A stretch of DNA of 62,550 bases from a virus. Its lineage: Duplodnaviria; Caudoviricetes. The notes under the pieces were generated by a model. It did no database searches. It saw only the letters and a program-made list of their open reading frames with translations, and was not told the origin of the DNA. Shown here in pieces: positions 3,724 through 62,550 of this stretch. Every line of letters starts with the position of its first letter. Positions within the stretch are counted from its first letter, which is position 1. Made by a program: the position numbers and the translations under genes. The stretch is from the IMG/VR virus record IMGVR_UViG_3300020045_014212, positions 1-62,550 of that record; one strand, given 5' to 3'.

Positions 3724-3813
3724 TATAATCGTTATTTGGTGGTGCGAAGACAAAATACCGCCAATCTTTCCTTTTCTATTGTGTTGCGTCATAACAATAA
3801 TATCATTTCTAAG

Positions 3814-4425
3814 ATGTATGCCTCGTATATAAGAGTTTCAACCAAATCCCAGGATTTAGGACTTGACGCACAACGAAAAATGTGTGAAAAGTATAATCCT
3901 GTTATTGAATTTCAGGAGAAAGAAAGTGGCCGTAATAATAGTCGGCCAATCCTCGCGGAGGCCGTTAGGTATTGTAGGGAGAATGGAGCTATTCTGGTTG
4001 TGGCCAAACTTGACCGCTTAGGCCGAAATGCATGGTACATGCTGAAGTTAATAGAAGAAAGTGGCATAGATTTTGTATTTTGCGATAATCCATCCGCAAC
4101 AAAATTAACCATTGGCATTCTAGCTGTTATCGCAGATGATGAAGCGAGGAGAATTAGCGATAGAACTAAAGCTGCGCTGGCTGTTTTGAAGGAGCGCGGG
4201 GTTAAACTTGGAGGAACTATGAACCCTTCCGAAAAGGATAGGGAATTGGCCGTTATTGCGGTACGGGAAAAGGCAGAAAAGAACGAAAACAACGTCCGAG
4301 CTCGCGCCATTATCTCTTCCATTAAAGGGACATTAGAAGAAAAGGCTAACTACCTGAACGCACATGGATTTAAAACCTCTAGAGGAGGATATTTTTCACC
4401 GACACAAATAAGGAGATTGACATGA
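3814..4425 (+). CDS. Serine recombinase (resolvase/invertase family)
   Basis: YIRVST, Q-rich N-terminus, ESG...RP.L, LVVAKLDRLGRN, ISDRTKAAL...GVKLG; start moved to MYASYIRVS. Confidence 0.92.
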   Translation: MYASYIRVSTKSQDLGLDAQRKMCEKYNPVIEFQEKESGRNNSRPILAEAVRYCRENGAILVVAKLDRLGRNAWYMLKLIEESGIDFVFCDNPSATKLTIGILAVIADDEARRISDRTKAALAVLKERGVKLGGTMNPSEKDRELAVIAVREKAEKNENNVRARAIISSIKGTLEEKANYLNAHGFKTSRGGYFSPTQIRRLT

Positions 4426-4716: not shown

Positions 4717-4968
4717 ATGAATATCAACAATGAGAACCAGTATTACATACAACAGTCAATATATCGTTTTCTTAATGACGGATTCATAAAAGCGTGCAAT
4801 AATAATATTTTAGAGTTAACATCAATAGCTCCTGTAAAAATCATTATATCTTCCAATGGAATGGAGGCTGTAATCTATGAAGAATTTCAAGAGCGTATTG
4901 ACAAGATAAATTTTATACTTGAAGAATATAAGAAAGCAAACTATCCTGAACTTTTTAAATCGGAATAA
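4717..4968 (+). CDS. Hypothetical protein
   Basis: ORF in operon. Confidence 0.6.
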   Translation: MNINNENQYYIQQSIYRFLNDGFIKACNNNILELTSIAPVKIIISSNGMEAVIYEEFQERIDKINFILEEYKKANYPELFKSE

Positions 4969-10017: not shown

Positions 10018-10829
10018 GCGAAAGTTGATTTTTTAGTTTCGTAAACAGATTTGTTATAATTAGGAAATTTAGCCACTACCTGCGACAACCTTTTATCCAA
10101 AGACTCGAGGCTAGTAGAAGCAAGTAGGAAGTCGTCATATTTTTTGCGCTCTTCAGGAGTTAGGCCATCGTCAATAACAGACCCAGAAGATGTGGCGGTC
10201 GTTTCTTCTACCACTTCGTAAGTAGCCTCAACCGTAGTATCTCCATCCCCTACGTCATTTCCAGAAACTTCAGCCCAAAGCCATTTTTTAGCTTTTCTTT
10301 CAGCCTTGCCTAAAACAGCGTCAGATTTCATTGACTTGTTAACGTAAACCGGCAAAGTAACAACCTCTGTCCTTCCATTGAACTTGAGTGTGCATTTAAC
10401 GTTTGCCGTTGTTCCTTCTGTTATTTGTGGCAATTCGTAGCGAATATCGTACTTGATTCCGCGCTTGGAAAGAAGGTAGGTAAACCCTTCTTTCGTCACA
10501 TACATATTTCCGGCGAGTATATTGAATTGATTACCAACGATTTGAACACCAGTAATGCACGCTTCAATGATACATTTTTTAATTGTCTCATCTGAATACG
10601 GTACGGCTTCTTTATCCTTGTCGGTCTGAAAACCAATCTTTTTGCCGCAACAAGACTTCTTGATTTTCTGAAAGTATTCATCAGAGAACGATTGTTCTAT
10701 CAGTTCAATTGCAGAAGCCTGATACATCATTCTTTCAAATCCTCCAGTATCCTTAGGGAGAGAAATAATCTCATTGATTTTTCCGTCAATGTTTTTTGCG
10801 AGTTGGCTGTCTACTTTAATTAATTCCAT
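10014..10829 (-). CDS. Putative single-strand annealing (RecT-like) protein
   Basis: Size, proximity to the YqaJ nuclease, G..IVGNQFNILAG..YVTKEG and KAERKA motifs. Confidence 0.55.
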   Translation of the reverse strand: MELIKVDSQLAKNIDGKINEIISLPKDTGGFERMMYQASAIELIEQSFSDEYFQKIKKSCCGKKIGFQTDKDKEAVPYSDETIKKCIIEACITGVQIVGNQFNILAGNMYVTKEGFTYLLSKRGIKYDIRYELPQITEGTTANVKCTLKFNGRTEVVTLPVYVNKSMKSDAVLGKAERKAKKWLWAEVSGNDVGDGDTTVEATYEVVEETTATSSGSVIDDGLTPEERKKYDDFLLASTSLESLDKRLSQVVAKFPNYNKSVYETKKSTFA

Positions 10830-11514
10830 CGAGAATAATTTTTAATTTGTTGTATGTTTCGGCTAAAGTTCCGGTATTATCAATTTCGAAGTCTGGTTCT
10901 ATCTGGGATAGTTCTGTTTCGGAGGAATGAGAGGACTCGGATTTGGTACGCTTGAGTTTGATTATTATACCATATCTGTCCTTTATGGCTTTTGCTTCGT
11001 TAAGAAATCTGAGGTCAGAGATAATCCAATTTGGAAAATAACTCATACAAAGTTTCGATATTTCCTTGTCGTTATAATCAATTAAGCCCATGTTTTTTTC
11101 TTCACACAGCTTACCCAATTGCTTCATAAGCGCAGAAGTAGGTAAAACAGGAATGTACTCAGCAAACAAAGACTCAATCCAAATATTAGAATTGATGGCA
11201 CGACCAAACTCGGTTCCTGTATGCTGAAGTAACCAACGAACTGATTTTCCTTCCAATATTGCAGGACGCGAATTTTTGAACTCGCTATCCTCAAAATCCT
11301 CCACTTTACAATTAAGTAGAATAGAACAAATTTGTTTTAATTTTGAGGCGAATTTTTTGATTTGCCAGCCACTCCAATTTCTTGTTCTGTCATTTTCAAG
11401 AAAACATTGCTGTAATGTATATTGGGAGTTATATTCTTTCCAAAAATAATACTGTATCATCTTCGAAACAGTATCCTTTCCACTTCCAATTGTTCCTGTA
11501 AGTGCGATTATCAT
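10816..11514 (-). CDS. Deoxynucleoside monophosphate kinase
   Basis: GTIGSGKDT, FASKLK, R.LLQ..GTE.GR, ISDLRFLNE, HSSET. Confidence 0.92.
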   Translation of the reverse strand: MIIALTGTIGSGKDTVSKMIQYYFWKEYNSQYTLQQCFLENDRTRNWSGWQIKKFASKLKQICSILLNCKVEDFEDSEFKNSRPAILEGKSVRWLLQHTGTEFGRAINSNIWIESLFAEYIPVLPTSALMKQLGKLCEEKNMGLIDYNDKEISKLCMSYFPNWIISDLRFLNEAKAIKDRYGIIIKLKRTKSESSHSSETELSQIEPDFEIDNTGTLAETYNKLKIILDGIN

Positions 11515-11672
11515 CTTTTACGATTTTTTGATTTTTTAACAATTGGTTTTTTATCTTCCATAGGTTTTAAGGTTCTTCCATCTACAATTATAATTTCTCC
11601 TGTTTGTAGATTTCTTGTCCTTAAATCACCTTCGTATTTACCAGCGTATGATGTATCTCCAATTTTTATCAT
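11511..11672 (-). CDS. Small basic protein (53 aa)
   Basis: Hand translation MIKIGDTSYAGKYEGDLRTRNLQTGEIIIVDGR...KKSKNRKR; overlaps both neighbours. Confidence 0.6.
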   Translation of the reverse strand: MIKIGDTSYAGKYEGDLRTRNLQTGEIIIVDGRTLKPMEDKKPIVKKSKNRKR

Positions 11673-12736
11673 TTCAGTCCAGTTGAAAGTTTAGTAGGAG
11701 ATTTTAATTTTGGGTGGTGTTTATAATCAATCAAGTGAAAATTATGAATACCAAACTTTTCAAATTTAGAATCATCTTTTTCAAAGTCAATTAATGCAAG
11801 TGTGGGTAATTTGAAGCACTCCCTATCCAATGTTTCTTTCGCCGCATCAATATGATTCTCGTAAATATGAACATCTCCAAAAGAATGAATAAATTCACCA
11901 ACAGCAAAACCGCACAATTCTGCTACAATATAAGTTAAGAGTGCGTATGAAGAAATATTGAATGGAACACCAAGTATTGTGTCGGCAGAACGTTGGTATA
12001 GGTGGCAGTCGAGGTAATATTTCGGCACCGAATTTTGCTCCAATTCGTCTTCTGTTATTGGAACAATATCGAGTGCGAAAACTGGATGATTTGATGTTTT
12101 TATGTAAATTGCACACCTTTCGTCAAAAGTCAACTTCCTACAATTAAATTGCACAAAAGCATGACAAGCATTTAATGCCATATCATTTAAAGTGGAAGGA
12201 TTCCAAGCGGTAATTATGTGTCTGCGGCCTTCGGGATTTTTTATCAATCCCTTCACGAGGTCTGAAAACTGGTCAACTCCTTGCCAATCGCGCCATAACT
12301 TTCCGTATTGTTGGCCGCAGTCGCCGAGGTAGTATCTGACCGGACTACTGCTATCAAAAAATACGGGTTCATTCAAAACATCTTCGTCTTTCACGAATTT
12401 CATAAATGTTTCAAAAGTTATCTTTGAATCCTTACTACTTGGATAGTGGTAATCGAATTTCTTACAATAATAATTATACGCATCCTCATTCCAAATAGAA
12501 ACGCCATTATCTACAAGGAATTTAATATTGGTATCTCCGCGTAAAAACCACAATAACTCATATACAACACTTTTCCAGTGTATAGGTTTCGTGGTTACAA
12601 TCGGAAATCCTTCGGCAAGATTGAATCTCATTTGATAGCCAAATAATCCAATTGTCGGAGCCATTCCTTCTCTCGCAGGAGATTTGTAGGTTCCTTTTGA
12701 TAAAATGTCTTGGATGAGTTGTTTGTATTGTTGCAT
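11669..12736 (-). CDS. thyA: Thymidylate synthase
   Basis: ELLWFLRG, IWNE, YG..WR, RRHIITAWNP, ACH, YQRSAD..LGVPFN, GDVHIYENH; contains insertions. Confidence 0.96.
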   Translation of the reverse strand: MQQYKQLIQDILSKGTYKSPAREGMAPTIGLFGYQMRFNLAEGFPIVTTKPIHWKSVVYELLWFLRGDTNIKFLVDNGVSIWNEDAYNYYCKKFDYHYPSSKDSKITFETFMKFVKDEDVLNEPVFFDSSSPVRYYLGDCGQQYGKLWRDWQGVDQFSDLVKGLIKNPEGRRHIITAWNPSTLNDMALNACHAFVQFNCRKLTFDERCAIYIKTSNHPVFALDIVPITEDELEQNSVPKYYLDCHLYQRSADTILGVPFNISSYALLTYIVAELCGFAVGEFIHSFGDVHIYENHIDAAKETLDRECFKLPTLALIDFEKDDSKFEKFGIHNFHLIDYKHHPKLKSPTKLSTGLK

Positions 12737-12745
12737 GTGGTTGAC

Positions 12746-12781
12746 TTTCACCTAAAAATCCCGCCTCGTTAAAGGCGGGAT
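12746..12781 (-). promoter_or_regulatory. Hairpin + U-tract + GGUGAAA element (copy 2)
   Basis: TCCCGCCT TTAACG AGGCGGGA TTTTTAGGTGAAA on the minus strand upstream of thyA. Confidence 0.7.
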
Positions 12782-16564: not shown

Positions 16565-18255
16565 GCAACAGAAGTCTATCTCTATATCAATCAAATGGCA
16601 AAAGTAAACTATACTCCAAATTAAAATCAGGGGTAAAGAGTATTGTTGTTGTCTCGCCAACAGGTAGTGGCAAATCTGTTGTATGCTCATCGGTTTCATC
16701 GGACTATCTTAATAACCAGCACACCAAACTTTTACTACAAATAGTAGGCGACACAGTAAGGTATGCCAAAAAAGTCTTAATATTAGTTCACAGAGAAGAG
16801 TTGCTTAACCAAATGCGCGAAAAGCATTTTGAGTGGTTCGGCATAATACCTGAATTAATTGACGCCGGAACACGTTATCTTTCTAATGTAGGAGTTTATA
16901 TTGCAATGGTTGAGACACTTAACAACCGCACTGACGATCAATCATTCTTGAACCAAATTGGAGAAGTGGGATTATTAATGGTTGACGAATGCCACCTTTC
17001 TAATTTCTCTAAAATATTCCCACATTTTCCCGAAGCTATTAGAATAGGATTTACTGCAACTCCTATTTCTGCAAATAAAAAATTACCACTTAATGAACAG
17101 TGGGATGATATTGTGGTTTTGGCTACAGTTCCAGAGTTATTGGAAGTGAATAGGTTAGACGCCGGAAGAGGAGTTGTTCCTTGTATTGATTATGGCTTCT
17201 CCATTGTTGACAGGGCTAAATTAAAAACTAAAGGTGACGACTTTGACGATAAATCAAACTCGCTAGAGTTCTCTAAGCTCGAACAGATACAGAACACAAT
17301 TGACGCAATAAATCAAGTAGCTTACAATAAAAAGATAGTTATATTTAACTCTGATATTGACCATTCTCTGCGAGTCCACAAGCGCTTACTAGAACTTGGC
17401 TACAATAGCAGACACCTTGATTCCAACAAAAAAGGAATGTATGCCTCGGATTCATACAGAAAAGATACTTTAGGAAAATGGATTGAAAACGAACCTAATG
17501 CAATACTTAACAACGTAGGAATTGCAACAATCGGAACAGATATACCTTCATTGGAGTGTGGGGTTTTTAACTATTGCACAAAATCAATAACCAAGTACAA
17601 ACAGTGCCTCGGAAGGCCGGCCCGTCCTTTCCAATACAAAGACGGGAGTTATAAGAGTCACTTCATTTGGATTGACACTGGAGATAATATCAAAGCTGGT
17701 GGAAATTGGAGATTTGCAGACCCGATTGATTGGGAAGATATATTTCGTAATCCTCGCAAAAAATCAAAAGCTGGAGTTGGTGGAGTTAAAACCTGTCCAG
17801 AATGCGGAGCTTTTAATTATCCTACAGCTACTGTTTGTGCCGGAATGCGAGAAAATTGGCTTACCAAAAAGATAGTGGAATGTGGTTTCGTCTTTATATT
17901 TGAAGAGAAGACTGAAGACTTATTGGAAAGGAAGTTGATACGGTACTCATCAGACATAGATGTTGCTGCATGTATTGAATTTTTCAAAGACAGTAAGGAA
18001 TTTCGTTCTTATAATGAATTATTCAAGCAGATAGCAAACTCCATAAGGTCGCAAGTGGAAGGTGAGTATCTTGATGATTTAGAACTGAAGGCAGCACTCG
18101 AACTAACATATCGAAAATGCACTGAATGGTTCAAACTCAAGGGTCGTAGAAAGTATGAAAATTTCCGCAAAGACGTTGAAAACAGAATACTCAACGAATT
18201 AAACAAACTCAATTTCAAAATAGACGTAGAAGAATATGAATCAATTCAATTATAA
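16549..18255 (+). CDS. SF2 DExH helicase with C-terminal zinc finger
   Basis: SPTGSGKS, VHREEL, DECH, TATP, Q..GR..R, CPECG. Confidence 0.92.
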   Translation: MYKPLGNRSLSLYQSNGKSKLYSKLKSGVKSIVVVSPTGSGKSVVCSSVSSDYLNNQHTKLLLQIVGDTVRYAKKVLILVHREELLNQMREKHFEWFGIIPELIDAGTRYLSNVGVYIAMVETLNNRTDDQSFLNQIGEVGLLMVDECHLSNFSKIFPHFPEAIRIGFTATPISANKKLPLNEQWDDIVVLATVPELLEVNRLDAGRGVVPCIDYGFSIVDRAKLKTKGDDFDDKSNSLEFSKLEQIQNTIDAINQVAYNKKIVIFNSDIDHSLRVHKRLLELGYNSRHLDSNKKGMYASDSYRKDTLGKWIENEPNAILNNVGIATIGTDIPSLECGVFNYCTKSITKYKQCLGRPARPFQYKDGSYKSHFIWIDTGDNIKAGGNWRFADPIDWEDIFRNPRKKSKAGVGGVKTCPECGAFNYPTATVCAGMRENWLTKKIVECGFVFIFEEKTEDLLERKLIRYSSDIDVAACIEFFKDSKEFRSYNELFKQIANSIRSQVEGEYLDDLELKAALELTYRKCTEWFKLKGRRKYENFRKDVENRILNELNKLNFKIDVEEYESIQL

Positions 18256-19294
18256 TTGGAATCTTAAAGATGCCATTTTTACTAAAGATAAAGGAACTGT
18301 TTTCAGTTGTTTCGCATGTGGTGGTGGTTCTACTATGGGTTATAAGTTAGCTGGATTTGATGTAATTGGCTGCAACGAAATTGACCCAAGAATGATTTGG
18401 AGGTATATGATTAATCATAGGCCAAAATATCCATTTCTGGAAGGAATCCAAACATTTAAAGACCGTAATAACCTTCCTAAAGAACTGTACGAACTAACAA
18501 TCCTTGATGGCAGCCCACCATGTAGTTCCTTTTCTATGTCAGGTAATAGAGATGATGATTGGGGAAAAGACAAAGTCTTTAAAGAGGGTCAGGCAAAACA
18601 GGTTTTAGATACTTTATTTTTTGACTTTATAGAACTTGCAAAAAAACTACAACCAAAAATAGTTGTAGCGGAAAATGTCAAGGGGTTATTGATGGGTTCC
18701 GCCGACAAATACGTGAAGAAAATATATCAAGAGTTTGATAGTGCAGGATATTATTGTCAACACCACCTACTTGACGCAAGCAATATGGGTGTTCCGCAAA
18801 GAAGGGAACGTGTATTTTTTATAGCATTGAGAAAAGATCTTATGAATAATATAGGTTTTTCTGATATGTTCGGATTAACTCCAAAACTAACACTTATATT
18901 CAACGAACCTAAAATAAGGTATTCGGAAATATGCGAAGGTGAAGGTAGAAAGTTATCGGATTTTCAGTATGAATTATGGTTAAAGAAACATGATTCGGAT
19001 TTAAACTTTGGAGACATAAATAAAAGGGAGCGCGAAGGTAAAATTTCAATGTTTAATTATGCACTTATAAAACAAACTGATATATTACCAACACTTCAGG
19101 GGGATGAAAGGATAATAGAATTTGAGCGCCCAATGTTTATACCATTAACCGCAATAATTAAAGCCTCATCATTTCCACTTGATTATAATTTTTACGGAAT
19201 GAATCCTGCATATTTCTGCGGAATGAGCGTCCCTCCGTTAATGACAGCTAATATAGCCACTGAAATATATAATCAATGGATAACAAAATTCTAA
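18236..19294 (+). CDS. C5-cytosine DNA methyltransferase
   Basis: FACGGG, GSPPC, ENV, PQRRERVF, GMSVPP. Confidence 0.93.
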   Translation: MNQFNYNWNLKDAIFTKDKGTVFSCFACGGGSTMGYKLAGFDVIGCNEIDPRMIWRYMINHRPKYPFLEGIQTFKDRNNLPKELYELTILDGSPPCSSFSMSGNRDDDWGKDKVFKEGQAKQVLDTLFFDFIELAKKLQPKIVVAENVKGLLMGSADKYVKKIYQEFDSAGYYCQHHLLDASNMGVPQRRERVFFIALRKDLMNNIGFSDMFGLTPKLTLIFNEPKIRYSEICEGEGRKLSDFQYELWLKKHDSDLNFGDINKREREGKISMFNYALIKQTDILPTLQGDERIIEFERPMFIPLTAIIKASSFPLDYNFYGMNPAYFCGMSVPPLMTANIATEIYNQWITKF

Positions 19295-24895: not shown

Positions 24896-26211
24896 ATCAT
24901 TGATATTTCTGTTGTCGAAGTCGGTATTTTTATCTGTTGTTTGAAATCAAGGAATAATTCTTGCTTTAAACCATTAACTCCGCCTGTATATTTCACTTTT
25001 TTAATCTTGTATTGACCGTTTCTGTCGGCTATAAATTTATCCGTGATATTCACATTGTCATTCCACACTACAAACGGGTATCCAAGTGTAGTAAAAGAAC
25101 CTCTAAATCCGGTATAGTAGTATTTCTCCAACTCTTGTATTCCCTTCGTTGCCATTTGTTGAACAGTTGGCTCTGGTTCCGTAAGTGCTACACCGTAAAC
25201 AGTTTTGTGTCTTTCTCCGCCTTCGTTAGGTGGCAATGGGTGATTTGCGTCTATTTGAAAGTATTTGAAAGTCTCGGTTATATTGTCCCAGTAAACATAA
25301 ACTGACTTTCTGAACCTTTTTGTTGCCGCCGCTCCAGATCTTGTTGTTCTATTTGTTGCTCGTATTGTTTGGCAAGATACAACAGTAGAAACAACTACAT
25401 CTCCTTTGTTGGTGTAATCTAAGTTTTCTGACGAGATGTTATTTTGAAATTCAAAGAAGTTCCTACTGTTGGCTCTATCTTCGTCATAAACCTTAAAACA
25501 AAACCATAACTCATCTCCAACAAAAAAGCTATTAACTCCGTACCTTTGCTTTAGTTTTTGTAAAACCATAGCGCAGCTCATTGTTTGATAGTCTATGTCT
25601 AAGTATCCTAAAGAGAAGTTTTGGATTACCTCATCTGTCTTTGTGAACAATTTCAAACTCGTACCAAATAGCTTATTACAGTTGGCAAGCATTATCCGGC
25701 ACAAATCCAACATTTTGGTAGAACCGCTATTAGAAGTAGGAAATCTGGTTATACCGATAGGTGTTTTTTTGAGTAAATAAAAATTATCCTCGCAATCCAA
25801 TACTATCGGTACTTCAGAATGAACCCTTGAAATGAATCCTATAAATCTAGTCGTCTGTTCCTTTATTTCCTTTCCGGCCTCATTGAAAAATCTATATCCA
25901 TCTTCAATAATAATCTTATCTCCACGCAAGAATAATGGCGGTACTTTATTTCCATTGACAGTTCCACCAAGTATTACATTGTATGTTCCAGACTGCTGAA
26001 ACATGAACTTGTCTGTTTGAAGTATAATGTTCTTTGGAAAAGATACCGTAGCATTGCCAGTATGATTTTCCCAACCATTTTCAATCTCGTATGAATGAAC
26101 AAAATCAAGTACTATAACCGAGTTTCTTGTAACAGTAACAGACCTCCCGTTCTCTTGATAGATATACGGAGTTACTTGAGTTATTGTTATGAGAGAAAAC
26201 GGCCTAAGCAT
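24892..26211 (-). CDS. Baseplate hub (gpD/gp44-like)
   Basis: F.GFI..V, LDCEDNFY.LK, YTGFRGSFTTLG.P, G.Y.IKKV motifs. Confidence 0.75.
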   Translation of the reverse strand: MLRPFSLITITQVTPYIYQENGRSVTVTRNSVIVLDFVHSYEIENGWENHTGNATVSFPKNIILQTDKFMFQQSGTYNVILGGTVNGNKVPPLFLRGDKIIIEDGYRFFNEAGKEIKEQTTRFIGFISRVHSEVPIVLDCEDNFYLLKKTPIGITRFPTSNSGSTKMLDLCRIMLANCNKLFGTSLKLFTKTDEVIQNFSLGYLDIDYQTMSCAMVLQKLKQRYGVNSFFVGDELWFCFKVYDEDRANSRNFFEFQNNISSENLDYTNKGDVVVSTVVSCQTIRATNRTTRSGAAATKRFRKSVYVYWDNITETFKYFQIDANHPLPPNEGGERHKTVYGVALTEPEPTVQQMATKGIQELEKYYYTGFRGSFTTLGYPFVVWNDNVNITDKFIADRNGQYKIKKVKYTGGVNGLKQELFLDFKQQIKIPTSTTEISMI

Positions 26212-26956
26212 TAGCTATTTTTATAACGAGAGGTTTATCTGAAACGGTACTAATTACTATTCTTTGCGCCGAATATTCACCTTCAACTTGTTCGATATTC
26301 ATATTCTCAACACACAAGTATTGAATCCCTAGTTGCTCCAACCACCAGCATCTGATTGGAAGGGCAATGGGTGCATTTACCAGCTTCATTATTGAAGCTA
26401 TATTATCTCTAGGATAGACTCCGTCCTGATTTACCTTTTGAATGTTTGGAGATACCGGCGCGTCAGCCGTAATGATTGCCCTTATATCAACCCTCCAGTC
26501 ATTCATTCCGATAGACTCCTTTATGGTTCCTTGGTCGCGTCCTGATATTGAGGTTTTTTCGATTATTTTGTCAAGTGACGCTGATATTACAACTGTTTCA
26601 AAAACAACATCTGGAATAGTCTGCTGAACTCCTGCCATATCGGTATAGATTCCACCTATAAATTCCAATGCACACAAAACCGGAATACCCGACAGAGAGG
26701 AGGACATTCTGCCATCCCATCTTGCTGATTTTAAAAAAATACCGTTATGTTCTTCTGCGTCAGGTGTATATGATGAAGGTTGTTCAAGTTCAGGGAAATC
26801 GTGATTTAAAAGTGCTCGTTGATTCGCTTCTGCATACGCTATACCAATACCATATAACCTTCCGAATGCCTGTTGTTTGGCGACAGAAAGTAATGATATG
26901 CCATTGAAAAATTTCAATGGAACATTTGGTGTTGGAGAATTTGGTATGTTATACAT
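26204..26956 (-). CDS. Tail tube initiator-like protein (DUF6046-like)
   Basis: K.IEKT.I.GRD.GTIKE.I..DW.V motif; follows the tape measure gene. Confidence 0.65.
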   Translation of the reverse strand: MYNIPNSPTPNVPLKFFNGISLLSVAKQQAFGRLYGIGIAYAEANQRALLNHDFPELEQPSSYTPDAEEHNGIFLKSARWDGRMSSSLSGIPVLCALEFIGGIYTDMAGVQQTIPDVVFETVVISASLDKIIEKTSISGRDQGTIKESIGMNDWRVDIRAIITADAPVSPNIQKVNQDGVYPRDNIASIMKLVNAPIALPIRCWWLEQLGIQYLCVENMNIEQVEGEYSAQRIVISTVSDKPLVIKIANA

Positions 26957-48481: not shown

Positions 48482-50570
48482 CCGCCAAGGCGATTAATCT
48501 TGTGTCGGACTCGTTGAAGTCTGTGAATGGAACGAAAACAGATGAGCTTGACACGATGTATTCGTCCATTCCATATATTTGAACTTCGTAAATAATGCCT
48601 CCAACAACCCTTACTATCAACATTCTTCCAACCCTTGTCGAGTCATGCAACTTCAACGCTTTTATTTCTTTCATATCTTTTCTCCGTATAAGTTATAACC
48701 AGTACTTAAAACCTTATTAAGCCAATAATAGTAATCAGTGTAAAAGGTGTGATACTCCATTTCACACATAATCTTATAAAACCACCATTTTAAAGGCAGA
48801 TTCTTTCCAGTAACTTTTGACCATGCCATAATCTATATCTTTTCTACATTAATAATGACAGAATATTTCCTCAATTCAAATGATACAACCATGCACCCTT
48901 CCACAATACTCCCAATTCCCATATATGGCCCTCCGCAAGGGTCAATCGCTATCGCAGGGTCGCCAGTTACTCCTAAAGAAAAATAATCGTGCAATAGAAG
49001 TGTAGTATCGTCGATTTTTGTTATCGAGTAATGGTTGAATTTTTTTGTCATAATTCCTTCATTTTATTATTTCTCGCATAGTGCCAACCCGACCTCCAAG
49101 CATGATACGAGCCGGTTCCTTCAAAATAGGGATTTGTCCTAAACCCAGATATGTAAGAGGCAACTCCTTGGATGAATTCGTTGTAAATCATATCATTGGA
49201 AGTTTAGTTCCAGAAGGAGTTCCGAATTTTGCAACTTCGATTCCGGTTTCGGTGCTATACACAGTAGAAGGAAGTAATATCACGGGGTCTAATTCTTCCG
49301 CCCACTCCCACGAAAATAAAACAATGGAAGGATATTTGTCGTATGGCGTGTCGGTCATAGAGAGTCGAATTTGGATTCAAGAGAATTTATTTCTAATTCA
49401 AGTTTCGAAATTTCATTTTCAATCATAAAAAGAATTGATTCAGAAGAAATTTCAAATGTCCTTTCTGTCCTATCTTTTGATATTGAAACAGAATAGATTC
49501 CATAATCAACATCTTTATAATCCGATGCAAATAGCGAAAGTTCATTTTTCCTTTTGTAGGAGTCATTCAGTTCCAACTGAATATTTTCGGCCTCTCTGAA
49601 TTTTTGGAAGGTCATGCTGAGCCAAATTTATTTGATACAAAATTATCTATGTCTGTCGGTTCAAATCCCAACTCCTCTAACCTTTCCTTATCCGCACCAG
49701 AGACAATAGAAGGAGAAACGTGAACATACATTTCGTCATGTTCACAAGATGTTGGATATTTTTCGTTTGAATATTTCAAAAATATCTGTAGTGCTTCGAT
49801 TAGTTCTTTCATACTCCAAAAGATTTTTCGATTTCTAAAATTTGTACCGATACCAAAGATATTTGTTTCGCTATGGCCTCCAGTAAAATGTCCGGTCTGA
49901 GATAAAAAGAAAATGTAGTGGAATAAGTTATGGCGGAGTCTCCCGTGTATGATTCTGCGTCTAACTTTATTGCATTCTGGACTTTTTTCAATTCCTGAAA
50001 TTTAGCTTCCAGCGCAACTAATTCTCGTACTTGTTGGATTTGGGATTGTGTCATTCTTCATGAAAAGATTTAGCTTTGGAAATAAGAACCATGCTGAAAA
50101 TAACTGAAGCGGAAAAAATTATTAGAAGGATAATGTCTCGGGTTGTCATAGGTACGTTCGATTGATTTTAGCTTTAATATTCAAAATCTTTCCACGTAAA
50201 CGAGAAAGATTAATTTCGATTTCATTTAAAACATTAACACACCTTAACTTGAAGATTATACCTTCGTGATTAACCTCGATGTATTTTTGTTTTGAAATTG
50301 AGTGTTTGGCGTTAAGATAGTTTAAAAAATCTTTTTCTAGTTCCGCCAATTCTTTTTCTAGTCCGGTGCGATTTGTCATTAGAAGAAAGTATGATGGCCG
50401 CTAGGCCAAGTATTTAAAGATTTTCGTCCGTCAATATTATTGGGATGGCAAATATAGGTAGGTTTCGGGTCGTTTCCAAATTTATTTGGGATATATTTTT
50501 TCATAATCCCTAATCCAACAAATCCGGCTATCATTAGAAGGAAAGTGAGGCCATTCGGAATCTCAGACAT
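48468..50570 (-). other. Run of short minus-strand hypothetical ORFs (48468-48674, 48833-49051, 49355-49615, 49612-49812, 49809-50054, 50146-50379, 50379-50570)
   Basis: Co-oriented, abutting or ATGA-overlapping ORFs of 63-86 aa. Confidence 0.65.
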
Positions 50571-51088: not shown

Positions 51089-52128
51089 ACGTATAAATTT
51101 TTACTATTCCATAATTCCCCTATTCATAATCTATTGATAATCAACAAACGCAATAGAAATTTTTGACATTCATTGTGTTTTGTAATGTATATGTGATTGA
51201 TTTTCAAATGGTGGAAATCTTGGTAGAATCTTTGGGTGTTTTTGAAATTGGTTCAAATTCCAAGATTCCAGTCTTGAAGTGGCTTAATATGAAATCGGAA
51301 ATATTTGTGGGTGTAGTACCGAGCACCCCACCGGCCTGAAAAGACGTGGGATTCACTTCCGCTACCCTACCCTACTCACACACGCACACGCATATACACA
51401 CGCATACACACGACACATGCACCATGCACACAAATACCCACAATGCCAATTCCCGCGATTTTGCGCCACATTTCAGCCCATCAAACCTATTTCCGATACA
51501 TTGTGTCAACCATACAATTTGCGGTCAAATTTGGCCATGTTTTTGCCCTATTTGACAAACCACAAATGACCGTATGTAGTATGTCAATATCCACCATCGT
51601 AATATGTACCCATATTCAATGAATTTATCTATGTTAGTTATTTGATATGTTAATTCAAATCATATAATAGTTGTTACGAAATAGCTATATATATTAATAG
51701 CCGATTATCGACAATTTAAACAAATTAATAATATCATACCTAATAAATATAATTTGGCCTACCTAAATAGTTAAAATCCATTAACATTTACCCACGATAC
51801 CCCACAATTAGCCGGAAATAGCCCAAATTTCGATTCTAACACGTTATGATACCACACTATTCGAAAATCATTTAACGGGCTAGAATAAAAATAATACATT
51901 TTTCGATACATAAATCATTATAGGACATAGGATTGAATCCTGGAAATTATCCTAATATGAGAATTATTCCTAATACGTTTGGGCCTACATTACGATCTTT
52001 TCTAAATTATAGATCTTTTGGTATGGGAATAACCATCATTAACAAAACAATAACACCCCAATAATTTGGAAATGTCGGGAAATAGAACTATAACGCACAC
52101 GTCCACCGAACACATGAGGATATTATAC

Positions 52129-52205: not shown

Positions 52206-52370
52206 ATGTACACAGCCGAAACAATACAGGAAATGAGAAATTGGGCCTATGATTGTGCAATTGACCGCGAAGACCTATTAAATATGCGTAGGGCTTCCGA
52301 CGAATCAATTATACGCTGGGTATCAAAAAATTATGATGGCGGGATTGACGCATTCCTTAAAAACATTTAA
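52206..52370 (+). CDS. Small hypothetical protein (54 aa)
   Basis: MYTAETIQEMRNWAYDC...NYDGGIDAFLKNI read by hand. Confidence 0.7.
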   Translation: MYTAETIQEMRNWAYDCAIDREDLLNMRRASDESIIRWVSKNYDGGIDAFLKNI

Positions 52371-52979
52371 TCATTAACCTCAAAAAATCAAATATATGAA
52401 AATCTCAAAAATCAACCAAACCACTACTATTGTAATAGAAAACAATGTAGCCGAAATGCAGGTATTATTAAATGCATTAGAATGTTATAATTTGTCATAC
52501 TTTAGGGAACACAACACACGCACCCACCGGATATATTAGTTATTTTGACATTAACATCTAGTTAAGAAAATAGTTCTTGTTTGGAACGTCCCTATATACT
52601 ACATTTGTGACGTGGTAAGGATACCACAATCGCCAATTTCGGCATAAAACATTGAAAATCAACGAGTTATGAAATTTCAAATAGAATACAATCTCGAAAC
52701 AACTATTTACCGCGATTATAACGGTCAAATAATTGAACCTTCCGATATTGATAAACTGATGTTTTCAATATTTGGCGATTGTGCCGACAATGTAACTGGC
52801 ATAGCTACTGCCACATATACAAAAGAAACATCTATTATACACACATTTACTTCCACTAATATGAAACAGGCCGAAGTTTACGCGATTGAATATTGTGGTA
52901 AATATGGCGTTAATGCTGCCAACATATTTGTATCAAAAATCTAATTTAATCATTAACCTCAAAAAATCAAATATATGAA
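52365..52979 (+). repeat. 36-bp perfect direct repeat covering translation leader and start (52365-52400, 52944-52979)
   Basis: ATTTAATCATTAACCTCAAAAAATCAAATATATGAA twice. Confidence 0.9.
52669..52944 (+). CDS. Hypothetical protein
   Basis: Follows promoter TACATTTG at 52600-52607. Confidence 0.65.
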   Translation: MKFQIEYNLETTIYRDYNGQIIEPSDIDKLMFSIFGDCADNVTGIATATYTKETSIIHTFTSTNMKQAEVYAIEYCGKYGVNAANIFVSKI

Positions 52980-56529: not shown

Positions 56530-57069
56530 ATGTACTATCCAACTTCCGAAAAATTAGCCAGCGAAAATTACCCGTATGGCTTCAGATTAAAAACAACAAA
56601 ATACGACTGGCTGGAGTTCCGTAAGGGTAAAGGTTTTCGCCATGCGTCGCAAACAATTAACCCGAAAAATACCAGATTAAATGCCGAAAAATATGGCACA
56701 TACTACGACATACTTCTACTAACACACAACGAAGAAGGCCATGTAAAATGCCATGCATGGAGCTTAAACGGAAGGGACGAAATAAATAGGGCTTGTGTTG
56801 CTATGTCGGCTAATTTCGATTGCTTTTCAGTAGATGAGGTAAGGGACATATACGAAAGAATTTGGTTTGGTTTGGCTGTTGATATGAAAGCCACTTGCGT
56901 ATATGGTGGAGCTAAAATTGCCGACATTAAAAGCTTATATGTTGAATCGATGGAACTAGCAAACATTGGAAAAGAAACAGGTGTTAATTTGTTTGCAAAA
57001 ATCAAAATAGACACATCTGCTGTTGATAGTTTTAAACCTGAAAATTTTAATCCCTTCGGCACGATATGA
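56530..57069 (+). CDS. Hypothetical phage protein
   Basis: NYPYGFRLKT...EF..GKGFR...QT.NPK. Confidence 0.7.
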   Translation: MYYPTSEKLASENYPYGFRLKTTKYDWLEFRKGKGFRHASQTINPKNTRLNAEKYGTYYDILLLTHNEEGHVKCHAWSLNGRDEINRACVAMSANFDCFSVDEVRDIYERIWFGLAVDMKATCVYGGAKIADIKSLYVESMELANIGKETGVNLFAKIKIDTSAVDSFKPENFNPFGTI

Positions 57070-57949: not shown

Positions 57950-58207
57950 ATGGAAAGCACACTAAAATTAGATTTGCAAAAAATGGCATTGTATCAGATT
58001 GCCAGACTAATTAGGAAAGACTGGCTCAATGTTAGCCCACACGCAAAACCATACCTTAACGCAATGTTAGGACTGGAGAAGGTATCCGATAGCTACGGTA
58101 GCGATAATGGCAAATCAATAGTACTATATTTCCTTTCCAATGCAGCCACATGGCGAGGAGATAATGCGAAAACTATTAAAACACATTTAAAATCACTTGT
58201 AAAATAA
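57950..58207 (+). CDS. Phage protein
   Basis: IA..IR.DW...A.PYL.AM..L....YG.D...IV.YFL.NA..WRG. Confidence 0.75.
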   Translation: MESTLKLDLQKMALYQIARLIRKDWLNVSPHAKPYLNAMLGLEKVSDSYGSDNGKSIVLYFLSNAATWRGDNAKTIKTHLKSLVK

Positions 58208-58255: not shown

Positions 58256-58420
58256 TCTAAATATATGTTCGAACTAAAAACAATCAACCCACTTCACTCG
58301 CAAACATTTACCTTCTATTCATACGAGGAAGCGGTGGATAATTTCAAAAGGAGTGTGTTCGAATTTAAGGGATTCGGGAGTGTGGTTTTGAAATGTGAAG
58401 GCAACATAATATGTGAGTGC

Positions 58421-58444
58421 AAAATCCTTGAATGAGGATTTTTT
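58421..58444. terminator. Bidirectional terminator
   Basis: AAAATCCTT GAAT GAGGATTTTTT. Confidence 0.65.
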
Positions 58445-58500
58445 ATTTTAACATATGTGGAAAATTATAATTTATTATAAATTGTAATATGAATAAATAT

Positions 58501-58660
58501 AAAAATGTTCGAACCTGAAGCTCGTCTTATGGCTGTAGCGATTAACGCTCGGCGGAAGCTGGCCTCGGTTCGAACATATTGAATAATGTTATTGGAAGGG
58601 CAATCCTATCGCGGTATTGCTGCGCTGTGGCTGCTGTTCGCATGGCTGCCCTTCCAACAC
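58501..58660 (-). ncRNA. Candidate ~160-nt two-domain ncRNA with its own promoter
   Basis: Two 11-bp perfect stems (58505-15/58567-77 and 58592-602/58647-57), GC-rich, TTTG-N21-TATATTTG directly upstream, U5 after the last stem. Confidence 0.65.
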
Positions 58661-58947
58661 TACAAATATACGTCACTATCTGTTAGGAATCCAAATTTAT
58701 TTTGTTAACGAATAGTTATTACTCTTCCAATGTGATAATAAGGAGCCGCGCACGCGATATACAACAAAAAAATTGGATTGCAAAATCATTAACAAACATT
58801 AACAAATACAACTTCCAATGTTTAATTTTAGGACGAGGATACGTTAACAGATCTTTAACAAAAAAACACGAAAATAAATTAGGAAAGTGTCTTGTGGGGT
58901 TGTATATTTGCATTGTAATTAATCACTAACAACAAAAAACAAAAAAC

Positions 58948-59907
58948 ATGAAGTATTTTATCTTGGCTTTTGCGCCACACATCAAATTAATGTCGGACGG
59001 TACAGTTTGGAACATTACCGACAACAAACAATTGGAAATAGTAGAAGGCAAAGTTACCTTCACTCCCACAGAAAACTACGGCAAAACCATGAAGGCCGGA
59101 GTTGAGTGTACCGTACCTGTTGCAGCCCTTACAAAATTGGCTGACACCGAAGTTGACGGAAAAACAGGCTGGATTGATAGCGTAGAAAAGAAGGAACCTA
59201 CACCAGCGCAATTGGCACGCAAGGCCTTCAATGCACGCAAAAAGGAACTGGAGGGTATTATCGAAAAAAATGCTGCTATCCTTGCCGACTTTGACGCAGG
59301 AACACCTGAATTTGACGGTGCAAAAGTAGCTATCAAAACAGCCCGCGCCGAATTGGCTACATTAGTGCCACCTACTGTTGAAAAGGTTGAAAAGGTAGCT
59401 AAGGTGAAAAGTCAACCGGAAATTGATAGCGAGGCCAATATCGAAGTGTTATTTGCCGCTATGAATGCCGCAAAAGAAGCGTACAAATTGGCAATTGATA
59501 CGCACAATGCAACCGAAGGCTTCGGCAAATATGGTAGCAAAGCTACTGGAGAACGCGAAAAAGTTGCAAGTTTCGAAATGACCTACGAAATAGCTCAGGC
59601 AATCAGGGAATTTGCATCAAAAAATGATCTTTCACCTGCAGCAATGATAACGGCAATGGTTGAGGCAAAGGTTATACCTTCCGAAATTTCAACTCAAGCG
59701 CTCAACAAATACCTGAATTATCGCCAATTCCGACTGAAAAGGGATGAAACAAACATATTCATTCCTTTGAATGCAGAATATTACAATTGTTTTGCTGAGG
59801 AAAAAGTTGCGGAAATTCCGGCACTGGCCGCAGCACATAGGGCAACTGGAACTGCAATAACTACTTTGTGGGATGGCAAAATTAAGACAGCCACAGCCAC
59901 AGCATAA
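58948..59907 (+). CDS. Ala/Lys/Glu-rich hypothetical protein, monocistronic
   Basis: Promoter TATATTTG at 58903-58910; terminator at 59914-59940. Confidence 0.8.
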   Translation: MKYFILAFAPHIKLMSDGTVWNITDNKQLEIVEGKVTFTPTENYGKTMKAGVECTVPVAALTKLADTEVDGKTGWIDSVEKKEPTPAQLARKAFNARKKELEGIIEKNAAILADFDAGTPEFDGAKVAIKTARAELATLVPPTVEKVEKVAKVKSQPEIDSEANIEVLFAAMNAAKEAYKLAIDTHNATEGFGKYGSKATGEREKVASFEMTYEIAQAIREFASKNDLSPAAMITAMVEAKVIPSEISTQALNKYLNYRQFRLKRDETNIFIPLNAEYYNCFAEEKVAEIPALAAAHRATGTAITTLWDGKIKTATATA

Positions 59908-60205: not shown

Positions 60206-60724
60206 ATGAAATTAAAGATAGAAATTAAAAACCGCTGGACCGGAAAAATTCTATTTGAATTTGAAAGTGAAAATAATAATGTGAAAAATACGTTATTGGA
60301 AGCAATAAAAAGCAACGCCGACCTTAGCGATGCCAACCTTCGCAACGCCAACCTTCGCAACGCCGACCTTAGTAACGCCGACCTTAGCGGGGCCAACCTT
60401 AGTAACGCCGACCTTAGCGGGGCCAACCTTAGCTGGGCCAACCTTCGCGGGGCCGACCTTAGCGGGGCCAACCTTAGCGGGGCCGACCTTAGTAACGCCG
60501 ACCTGTCATATTCAAAAACAGATAAACGATATATACAAGTTTCGTGCATTGGTTCATCAAAAAGATTAACCACATATTGCTTTGAAGATGACATTGTATT
60601 ATGTGGCTGTTTCAAAGGGACATTATCTGAATTTGAGGCGAAAGTAAAAGAAACGCACGAAAATAACGAACAATATTTGAAAGAATATCTCGGTTTTATA
60701 AATTACATAAAATCTTTAAAATGA
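60206..60724 (+). CDS. Pentapeptide-repeat protein with DUF5758-like C-terminus
   Basis: A(D/N)LSxA repeats; IGS..R.T...CGCF.GTL.EFE..V..TH; promoter TATATTTG at 60181-60188. Confidence 0.9.
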
Positions 60725-61228: not shown

Positions 61229-61552
61229 ATGCAAAAGTACAATATCGAAGATTATACTATATTGGTTCAAAAGGACGAAGATTTTGAAATTAGAGAAAAA
61301 TCTATTTCATTTGAACCAATGGTATTGACTTGCGAAAAGGGGATTGATAACGGATTGATTTTAAATGTAATTAAGATTAATCATTCTGTTCAATTCTGCA
61401 AAAATATGAATTTCCACAATGGATATGAAATTTATGTCAAAGTCGCCAAGTCGCCAAATAAAGATTATATGGCTGGCGAACAATTCCCTATAATGATTCC
61501 TTCGCATATTGAAATTGTAGAACATCTTTCAAAAAGATATAAAATTAATTAG
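61229..61552 (+). CDS. Hypothetical protein
   Basis: Follows leader element copy 9. Confidence 0.65.
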   Translation: MQKYNIEDYTILVQKDEDFEIREKSISFEPMVLTCEKGIDNGLILNVIKINHSVQFCKNMNFHNGYEIYVKVAKSPNKDYMAGEQFPIMIPSHIEIVEHLSKRYKIN

Positions 61553-62334: not shown

Positions 62335-62550
62335 ATGAAAATCAAACTGCAGATCAAATCAAAATTAGGAAGTGTATTATTTGAACTTGAAAAAGAAAAC
62401 AATACAATTAAGGAAACGGTTCTTGAAGCTATAAAAAGCAACGCCAACCTTCGCAACGCCGACCTTAGTAACGCCGACCTTAGCGGGGCCAACCTTAGCT
62501 GGGCCAACCTTCGCGGGGCCAACCTTAGCGAGGACAACCTTCGCTGGGCC
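62335..62550 (+). CDS. Pentapeptide-repeat protein, 5' part (runs off the end)
   Basis: [45 protein letters not shown]...; N-terminus paralogous to 60206..60724. Confidence 0.85.
   Translation, partial: MKIKLQIKSKLGSVLFELEKENNTIKETVLEAIKSNANLRNADLSNADLSGANLSWANLRGANLSEDNLRWA

Follow-up and report, generated by a model that had tools for sequence, protein, structure and literature searches.

According to the available text of one report, canonical small RNAs (sRNAs) of Bacteroides are defined by a transcription start site (TSS) of their own together with an intrinsic terminator (PMC7366714). The same report gives the consensus of the primary sigma factor, sigma-ABfr, as TAnnTTTG at -7 and TTTG near -33, with a preference for purines at transcription starts (PMC7366714). 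In viruses, RNA anti-CRISPRs (Racrs; PMC10651486) and viral CRISPR RNA (crRNA)-like RNAs (bioRxiv 10.1101/2024.10.29.618823) are described, in the available text of both reports, as small and non-coding, with a promoter of their own, and as serving as decoys for a host protein; both mimic CRISPR repeats, and they were found through likeness to host repeats. A search of the literature on phage sRNAs gave, among the papers listed, none on sRNAs of Bacteroidota phages. The element considered here lies at positions 58501–58702, on the minus strand, of IMG/VR record IMGVR_UViG_3300020045_014212, from an uncultured phage. The record is identical to the window (the whole stretch of DNA analysed, 62,550 bp), and its completeness is estimated at 100% by CheckV. 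We give about an even chance to the reading that the element is an orphan gene running from promoter to terminator, which would encode a stand-alone, very stable, two-domain phage sRNA of ~160 nt that acts through its structure and not by seed pairing.

Promoter, fold and terminator of the element

A preliminary description of this DNA, made from the letters alone, placed a minus-strand promoter, TTTG-N21-TATATTTG, at 58695–58663, aimed straight into two tandem domains, and the promoter is present as described. It belongs by motif and by its 21-nt spacing to the sigma-ABfr type that is one mark of canonical Bacteroidota sRNAs. An extended -33 element, AAATAAATTTGGA (58690–58702, minus strand), which includes the TTTG (58695–58692), is followed after the 21-nt spacer by the -7 element TATATTTG (58663–58670, minus strand), which matches TAnnTTTG and lies 5–6 nt ahead of the first domain. 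From the position of the -7 box, the TSS is predicted at 58657–58661 on the minus strand.

The full promoter pattern occurs nine times in the phage, with 2.1 copies expected and none of 100 shuffles reaching nine, and four of the nine copies stand directly ahead of open reading frame (ORF) starts (13337, 42104, 50379, and 60206). The exact box TATATTTG is likewise enriched in the genome (20 copies, 6.2 expected); in 11 of these 20 cases an ATG ORF of at least 40 codons comes within the next 90 nt, the copy at 58670–58663 being one of those without, and the clear gene starts behind such boxes include 13337, 13439, 34843, 50379, 52206, 58948, and 60206. The 13 nt of AAATAAATTTGGA are found identically ahead of the TATATTTG box of the promoter at 50449–50480, which faces the leftward gene starting at 50379 and heads a leftward operon leading to the primase-polymerase. 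As the RNA promoter and the promoter of this replication operon have the same -33 element, the RNA gene is probably co-expressed with the leftward replication genes. The element had also been described as divergent from the gene at 58948. That gene, a 319-aa orphan (58948–59907), has a divergent plus-strand TATATTTG box of its own (58903–58910), 37 nt ahead of its ATG, at which 13 of 15 surrounding positions (87%) match the box of the RNA promoter. Elsewhere in the genome, two identical minus-strand units, each consisting of TATATTTG and the same 24 nt (ATTTTTTGAGGTTAATGATTAAAT), lie 579 bp apart at 52365–52396 and 52944–52975. They point leftward inside a block of plus-strand genes, with no ORF of at least 40 codons behind either, and may be further antisense or orphan transcription units.

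Behind the promoter, the two tandem domains, each with an 11-bp perfect outer stem, were borne out, and the internal mini-hairpins of the preliminary description appear in the predicted fold. Domain 1 (58591–58658, minus strand) is closed by TTGGAAGGGCA (58657–58647) and TGCCCTTCCAA (58602–58592), paired at 11 of 11 positions with 44 nt between the arms; G-U pairs extend this stem, and the interior is CAGC-rich with a small apical hairpin. It is followed by an AU-rich linker of 13 nt, AACAUUAUUCAAU (58578–58590, minus strand), predicted to be single-stranded and, in the unpaired-probability profile of the predicted ensemble, the sole long accessible stretch. Domain 2 (58505–58577, minus strand), which would double as the terminator hairpin, is closed by ATGTTCGAACC (58577–58567) and GGTTCGAACAT (58515–58505), again paired at 11 of 11 positions, with 51 nt between the arms and an inner AGCG-UUAAU-CGCU hairpin. 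CAGCCA is present on the minus strand in the three copies previously counted (58648–58643, 58633–58628, and 58535–58530), and all three fall in predicted loops or junctions. The guanine plus cytosine (GC) content within the element is 0.45–0.54, compared with 0.21 (58400–58499) and 0.30–0.34 (58650–58849) in the flanks, in line with the contrast noticed earlier.

The fold is exceptional in silico. The 171-nt minus-strand sequence has a minimum free energy (MFE) of −64.5 kcal/mol, compared with −38.3 ± 3.5 kcal/mol for 200 dinucleotide shuffles (z −7.47), none of which folds as well, and about two thirds of the bases in the predicted RNA are paired. When 80-nt segments were slid along the minus strand with correction for GC content, the two domains ranked 11th and 17th among 6,247 overlapping segments. 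A census of inverted repeats over the whole 62.5-kb genome (exact seed of at least 11 nt, within 70 nt) gave 18 pairs, 15 of them simple palindromes or compact hairpins; only three enclose at least 30 nt, and two of these three are the adjacent domains described here. The ordinary terminators of the phage (29027–29072, 53162–53195, and 58420–58448) are compact stems with 4–8-nt loops; the two domains are of another kind. The remaining one of the three long-range perfect inverted repeats is ATTGGTTCAAA/TTTGAACCAAT (61261–61320, 38 nt between the arms, fold z −4.4), in or beside a small plus-strand ORF.

A rho-independent terminator, the other mark of the canonical Bacteroidota sRNA class, is found on the minus strand only, as the domain 2 hairpin followed by UUUUU(A)UAUUU. 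The U5 end had been noted before, and the U-run is indeed located at 58505–58501 on the minus strand, continuing into AUAUUUAUU with further U-rich sequence behind; its first U (58505) is still within the domain 2 stem. No T-run stands behind either hairpin on the plus strand, and no plus-strand TAnnTTTG occurs between 57976 and 58910. The element is assigned to the minus strand because both the promoter and the U-run after a hairpin are there. Downstream, the nearest minus-strand start in a crude list of ATG ORFs is 2,647 nt from the -7 box, with plus-strand genes between, and the next 2.4 kb of the minus strand are antisense to plus-strand genes.

Coding potential, mode of action and relatives

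The preliminary description saw no convincing ORF in the element, and this holds. The longest ORF on the minus strand is of 44 aa, and that on the plus strand of 40 aa; the former has no match among 1.84 billion representatives, and the latter no relative by word-index search. Five ORFs of 25–44 aa, in several frames, overlap the GC-richer stretch, and none of the five has a Pfam match. With regard to known RNA families, the 4227 models of Rfam 15 gave no match in the whole window at gathering thresholds. At E-values up to 10 over 58300–58950 there are four chance-level matches, of which the only one overlapping the element is to SNORA24 (58655–58778, 14.8 bits, E 6.1). ARAGORN found no transfer RNA (tRNA) or transfer-messenger RNA genes in the whole window; the sequence GGTTCGAAC is T-loop-like, but is without a flanking T-stem.

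A nine-base likeness to the A-loop of 23S ribosomal RNA (rRNA) had also been pointed out, with the caution that it might be chance. One Bacteroidota 23S rRNA does contain the 9-mer, GCTGTTCGC; however, shuffled elements have on average 3.4 nine-mers in common with that rRNA, 93% of them having at least one, and as the shuffles give as many, the match is attributed to chance. Against a Bacteroidota 23S rRNA, domain 1 gives its best local alignment at TTGGAA--GCAGCCAT, which we take to be the region of the GTPase-associated centre. Mimicry of 23S rRNA, whether of that centre or of the A-loop, was rejected, since the likeness does not stand out from 300 dinucleotide shuffles under three scoring schemes (p = 0.14–0.46). 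No 23S-like stretch was found by blastn elsewhere in the window (best 21 nt, E 0.012).

Base pairing with phage transcripts was assessed in a similar manner. The complement of the linker AACAUUAUUCAAU is not enriched, with 27 sites in the genome (up to 3 mismatches) where 25 are expected, and cofolding with 115 phage start regions gave a best net gain of −7 kcal/mol, none of the regions exceeding the background. One pairing target considered was the ORF at 58265–58435, which has at its start codon (58263–58274, plus strand) a 12-mer, ATATGTTCGAAC, identical to the 5′ arm of domain 2; its start region comes 77th among the 115 in net cofold gain and 58th in duplex energy, and was set aside. The 14-mer ATTGCCCTTCCAAT, from the 3′ arm of domain 1, recurs at 26355–26368 on the minus (coding) strand inside the gene at 26204–26956. 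It is the sole 14-mer common to the element and the rest of the genome, and its core is ATTGGAAG, which occurs genome-wide. With about two thirds of its bases paired and no start region pairing above background, the RNA, if made, might act through its shape, by protein binding rather than seed pairing; this is a weak suggestion, drawn from an absence.

From the sequence, we infer transcription, transcript ends and function as follows. Host-type RNA polymerase would start at ~58660 from TTTG/TATATTTG and proceed leftward, against the surrounding plus-strand early genes. The transcript would fold at once into two stem-closed domains with the 13-nt open linker between, would end at the U-run behind domain 2, and would be made alongside the leftward replication genes. 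The RNA may then bind a host or phage protein by shape, in the manner of a sponge or decoy. The stand-alone minus-strand sRNA of the preliminary description is its best-supported part, on the grounds of the phage-type promoter, the lack of a downstream ORF, the exceptional fold and the one-strand terminator; the protein sponge or anti-defence decoy that it added found no direct support, and such roles are speculation.

Homologues were sought widely, in collections which may omit records very near the window. The blastn searches with 'distant' settings gave no match in 50,697 phage records or in 72,556 plasmids, and three exact or gapped patterns each gave none in viral contigs. An 18-mer matched 16 times in the genomes of 185,579 species, which is about chance by our estimate, and none of the 16 passes the covariance model. 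A gapped pattern of 19 bases, which is of low complexity, matched at least 119 stretches of metagenome contigs; among the 80 loci listed none passes the covariance model, and the six weak local matches (E 1.2–9.1) among them cover the pattern alone. Within the phage genome, the covariance model finds the element and no second copy. In Bacteroidota, the model gave no match at E-values up to 0.1 in 151 sampled genomes, and a single match of 19 bits (E 0.2) among three other genomes was taken as chance. BLAST against 401 sampled Bacteroidota genomes gave only 17–30-nt matches at chance level, the best per-genome E-value of 0.002 becoming ~0.85 after multiplication by the 401 genomes (two candidates scored per genome); this best match lies inside an ORF, with no repeat array there.

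Relatives were also approached through neighbouring and structural genes. The 179-aa protein encoded 1.5 kb from the element has 20 relatives at 40–52% identity and occurs at 26 viral loci, and the element is in none of these 26 by blastn, nhmmer or the covariance model, nor in their whole records. The capsid led to two loci, with the element in neither whole record, bringing the related virus records without the element to 28. The nearest phage by capsid (40% identity, 55.6 kb) has structural and replication genes in common with this one at 22–40% identity, and possesses none of the small genes of this early region, nor the element. The neighbouring 319-aa and 840-aa proteins led to no related viral loci; among 5.8 billion protein clusters the 319-aa protein matches only itself, and an Atlas search for look-alikes of it gave no usable match. 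The element is therefore a single-member candidate phage-encoded sRNA.

Alternative explanations

Several observations weigh against the element being a stand-alone minus-strand sRNA gene. A homologue was found nowhere, which leaves no covariation and no apparent sign of selection beyond a single sequence; the covariance model was itself built from one sequence, with the element as its only positive control, and could miss diverged homologues. Between three and five of the nine full promoter patterns are without a gene behind them (30654, 45210, 47767, and 52389), and since the pattern occurs without an evident gene, a match alone is no proof of a promoter. The three copies of CAGCCA in 160 nt are marginal, the motif having been picked post hoc with a roughly estimated p of ~0.04, and the interiors of both domains are weakly structured. 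On the plus strand the fold is equally good or slightly better (−67.2 kcal/mol, z −6.1), and each domain separately folds about equally on either strand, so thermodynamics does not choose the strand. The remaining points of this kind are two repeated motifs, which are taken up with the explanation that they suit.

That explanation, which we consider unlikely, is that the element works as DNA: the inverted 11-mers would be binding or recombination sites (operators, an origin, or sites of the small serine recombinase) in a regulatory intergenic region, and the RNA hairpins would be a by-product. Leaving the pentapeptide repeats aside, no 8-mer is more over-represented in the genome than the core of the domain 1 stem, ATTGGAAG (24–25 copies, 3.5 expected). 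It occurs four times within 58591–58821, two of these being in identical ACATTGGAAG boxes that lie upstream of the RNA promoter (58724–58733, minus strand, and 58812–58821). The palindrome GTTCGAAC is present in each arm of domain 2, as would suit DNA-binding sites; all three copies in the genome fall within 58267–58575, the third and last being in the 12-mer at the start of the 58265 ORF, and three copies are reached by 4 of 100 shuffles (0.8 expected). Equal folding of both strands is what plain DNA palindromes would give, a very AT-rich stretch (GC 0.21) adjoins the element, and the phage has a resolvase-type recombinase (3736–4425). However, action as DNA leaves unexplained why a promoter is aimed exactly at the first stem and a U-run placed exactly behind the second. 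The 44- and 51-bp spacers are too short for an invertible segment, going by what is generally known of serine invertases, a specific recombination site would not be expected to be scattered, as ATTGGAAG is, over coding regions of both strands, and cumulative GC skew has no turning point at 58.5 kb.

Sites of ATTGGAAG include those at 4850, 8231, 17139, 26355, 46100, 58591, 58724, and 58812. The second most over-represented 8-mer is ATTAGAAG (20 copies, 3.5 expected), and the pair, ATTRGAAG, has a strand polarity that is independent of the direction of transcription: between ~16 and 51 kb most copies are on the plus strand, and from ~53 kb across the record ends up to ~16 kb most are on the minus strand. 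Such a motif could be polar in the manner of Chi or KOPS and mark the direction of replication or of end entry.

Chance or decay is a further explanation to which we attach a low probability. Here the element would be a GC-richer scrap picked up by the hypervariable early region, with palindromes and a promoter-like match but no function. Its singleton status would fit, as would the orphan status of the 319-aa neighbour among the 5.8 billion clusters, the absence of this region's small genes from the nearest related phage (40% capsid identity), and the several promoter-pattern matches elsewhere that have no gene behind them. Against this, two adjacent perfect long-range stems, a full-consensus promoter whose match to a working-looking promoter is extended, and a well-placed U-run are jointly improbable, and the covariance model finds in the genome no second copy of the kind that would point to a selfish palindromic repeat.

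Quite improbable, in our estimation, is the more ambitious possibility of a new class of structured RNA decoys in Bacteroidota phages, very stable and two-domain in build, made early together with the replication genes and soaking up a host protein by means of the three exposed CAGCCA motifs and the long stems. Such a decoy could be aimed at a defence effector, at an RNA-binding regulator or at a ribosome-associated factor, and that the mimicked host RNA is not recognised by sequence would be due to its divergence or to poor sampling of the host.

We are more doubtful still of an RNA element on the plus strand, where the hairpins would be processing or stability structures in transcripts reading through from the upstream operon to the 58948 gene. 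The plus-strand fold (−67.2 kcal/mol, z −6.1) and the plus-strand orientation of the surrounding genes agree with such an arrangement. Read-through, however, would have to pass a compact intrinsic terminator of the upstream genes (a hairpin at 58420–58448, plus strand, convergent with the RNA gene) which precedes the element, and a separate TATATTTG box, at 58903, serves the next gene; neither a plus-strand TAnnTTTG upstream of the element nor a plus-strand T-run behind either hairpin is present. The least probable alternative is a pair resembling a type I toxin-antitoxin system, in which a 40-aa, partly hydrophobic peptide (58586–58708, plus strand) would be checked by the overlapping antisense RNA: the ORF exists and contains IAALWLLFAWLPF, and the RNA's sole open segment (58578–58590) covers the peptide's ATG at 58586, but the peptide has neither a homologue nor a Pfam match, a membrane helix would usually be longer than its hydrophobic stretch of 13–14 residues, the plus strand lacks a promoter motif, and with five overlapping ORFs of 25–44 aa in several frames an open frame here means little. 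A tRNA-derived attP core, an integron attC site, IS200/IS605 ends and an invertible promoter were set aside on general knowledge of such systems, given the lack of T-arm pairing and of core sites, the dissimilar hairpins and the too-short spacers.

Genome context and comparison with known systems

The phage encodes a tail sheath, a tape measure protein, a head protease, a large terminase, a primase-polymerase, and a helicase. Further genes specify a thymidylate-synthase-like protein, a deoxynucleoside monophosphate (dNMP) kinase, a C5 DNA methylase, an RNase T-type exonuclease and a small serine recombinase, the resolvase-type recombinase gene being that at 3736–4425. The capsid and terminase proteins are 23–28% identical to those of Bacteroides, Flavobacterium, Cellulophaga, and Tenacibaculum phages, and a Bacteroidota host would therefore fit. 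Leftward genes occupy 19.8–50.6 kb, and the block from 50.5 kb through the record end into 1–6.2 kb consists of small genes, most of them on the plus strand. The record is circularly permuted, as evidenced by a pentapeptide-repeat gene that crosses its ends (62437–62550 joined to 2–145); a second pentapeptide gene is located at 60206–60724.

Other features of this genome were observed in passing. The genes for the thymidylate-synthase-like protein (11669–12751), the dNMP kinase (10816–11514) and the C5 cytosine methylase (18236–19294) are near one another, a combination that hints at modified DNA bases; the first of these proteins is 359 aa long, ordinary ThyA being nearer 260–270 aa. To the right of the divergent switch point at 50.5 kb lies a GC-rich (up to 0.59), CA-repeat-like stretch (CACACGCACACGCATATACACACGCATACACACG..., 51287–51450) without a clear ORF. 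An 85-aa protein (57950–58207, phrog_13953) has counterparts with 47–58% identity in 80 phage records, among them Mycobacterium and Gordonia phages and Phage DSL-LC05; its small gene is common to phages of very distant host phyla. Among 21 sequences of the 179-aa protein (56530–57069), which cannot be placed in a known family, 23 residues are invariant; the protein is found in 26 viral contigs of 6–340 kb, and its gene is a widely travelling accessory gene.

If the RNA is real, it would be a clean, self-contained gene from promoter to terminator whose product is unusually rigid and without relatives; it would add a new RNA family and offer a tractable entry to the roles of structured RNAs in Bacteroidota infection. 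If the sequence is not transcribed, it points instead to clustered DNA sites within a divergent control region, which would be of local interest only.

Among known phage RNAs, the put RNAs of HK022 are two tandem stem-loops directly downstream of a phage promoter, which act in cis and carry polymerase through terminators into co-oriented genes. The element resembles them in its two tandem stem-loops right behind a phage promoter. An antiterminator of the put type was rejected, since the transcript of the element would meet its own terminator and, over the next 2.4 kb, no co-oriented genes but plus-strand genes follow. The packaging RNA (pRNA) of phi29, ~170 nt long, is a phage RNA that stands alone behind an early promoter; it has one domain closed by end pairing and a second hairpin domain, and acts through its structure and by binding protein. 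The likeness here is that of a stand-alone phage RNA with a two-domain build and structure-based action, all of which are predicted for this element. A pRNA of the phi29 type was nevertheless rejected: there is no Rfam match, the Rfam library including, as generally known, a pRNA family, and the phage studied here possesses a tail sheath and a large terminase of the classical sort, not a system of the phi29 type.

A single CRISPR repeat measures some 30–40 nt. At 160 nt the element is longer than that, and it differs from the Racrs further in having no repeat-like match above chance in the 401 sampled Bacteroidota genomes, a sample that may not include its host; Rfam gives no CRISPR-DR match for it either.

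The closest likeness is to the intergenic sRNAs of Bacteroides, such as GibS (~145 nt), which in the available text of the report have in common with this candidate a sigma-ABfr-type promoter, an intrinsic terminator, an intergenic place, a similar length and the lack of an ORF (PMC7366714). Compared with GibS, the present candidate is phage-encoded, has no sequence relative, and is predicted to fold far more tightly (PMC7366714). Whereas GibS is described as having an open, conserved 5′ seed (PMC7366714), the RNA predicted here starts directly in a long stem.

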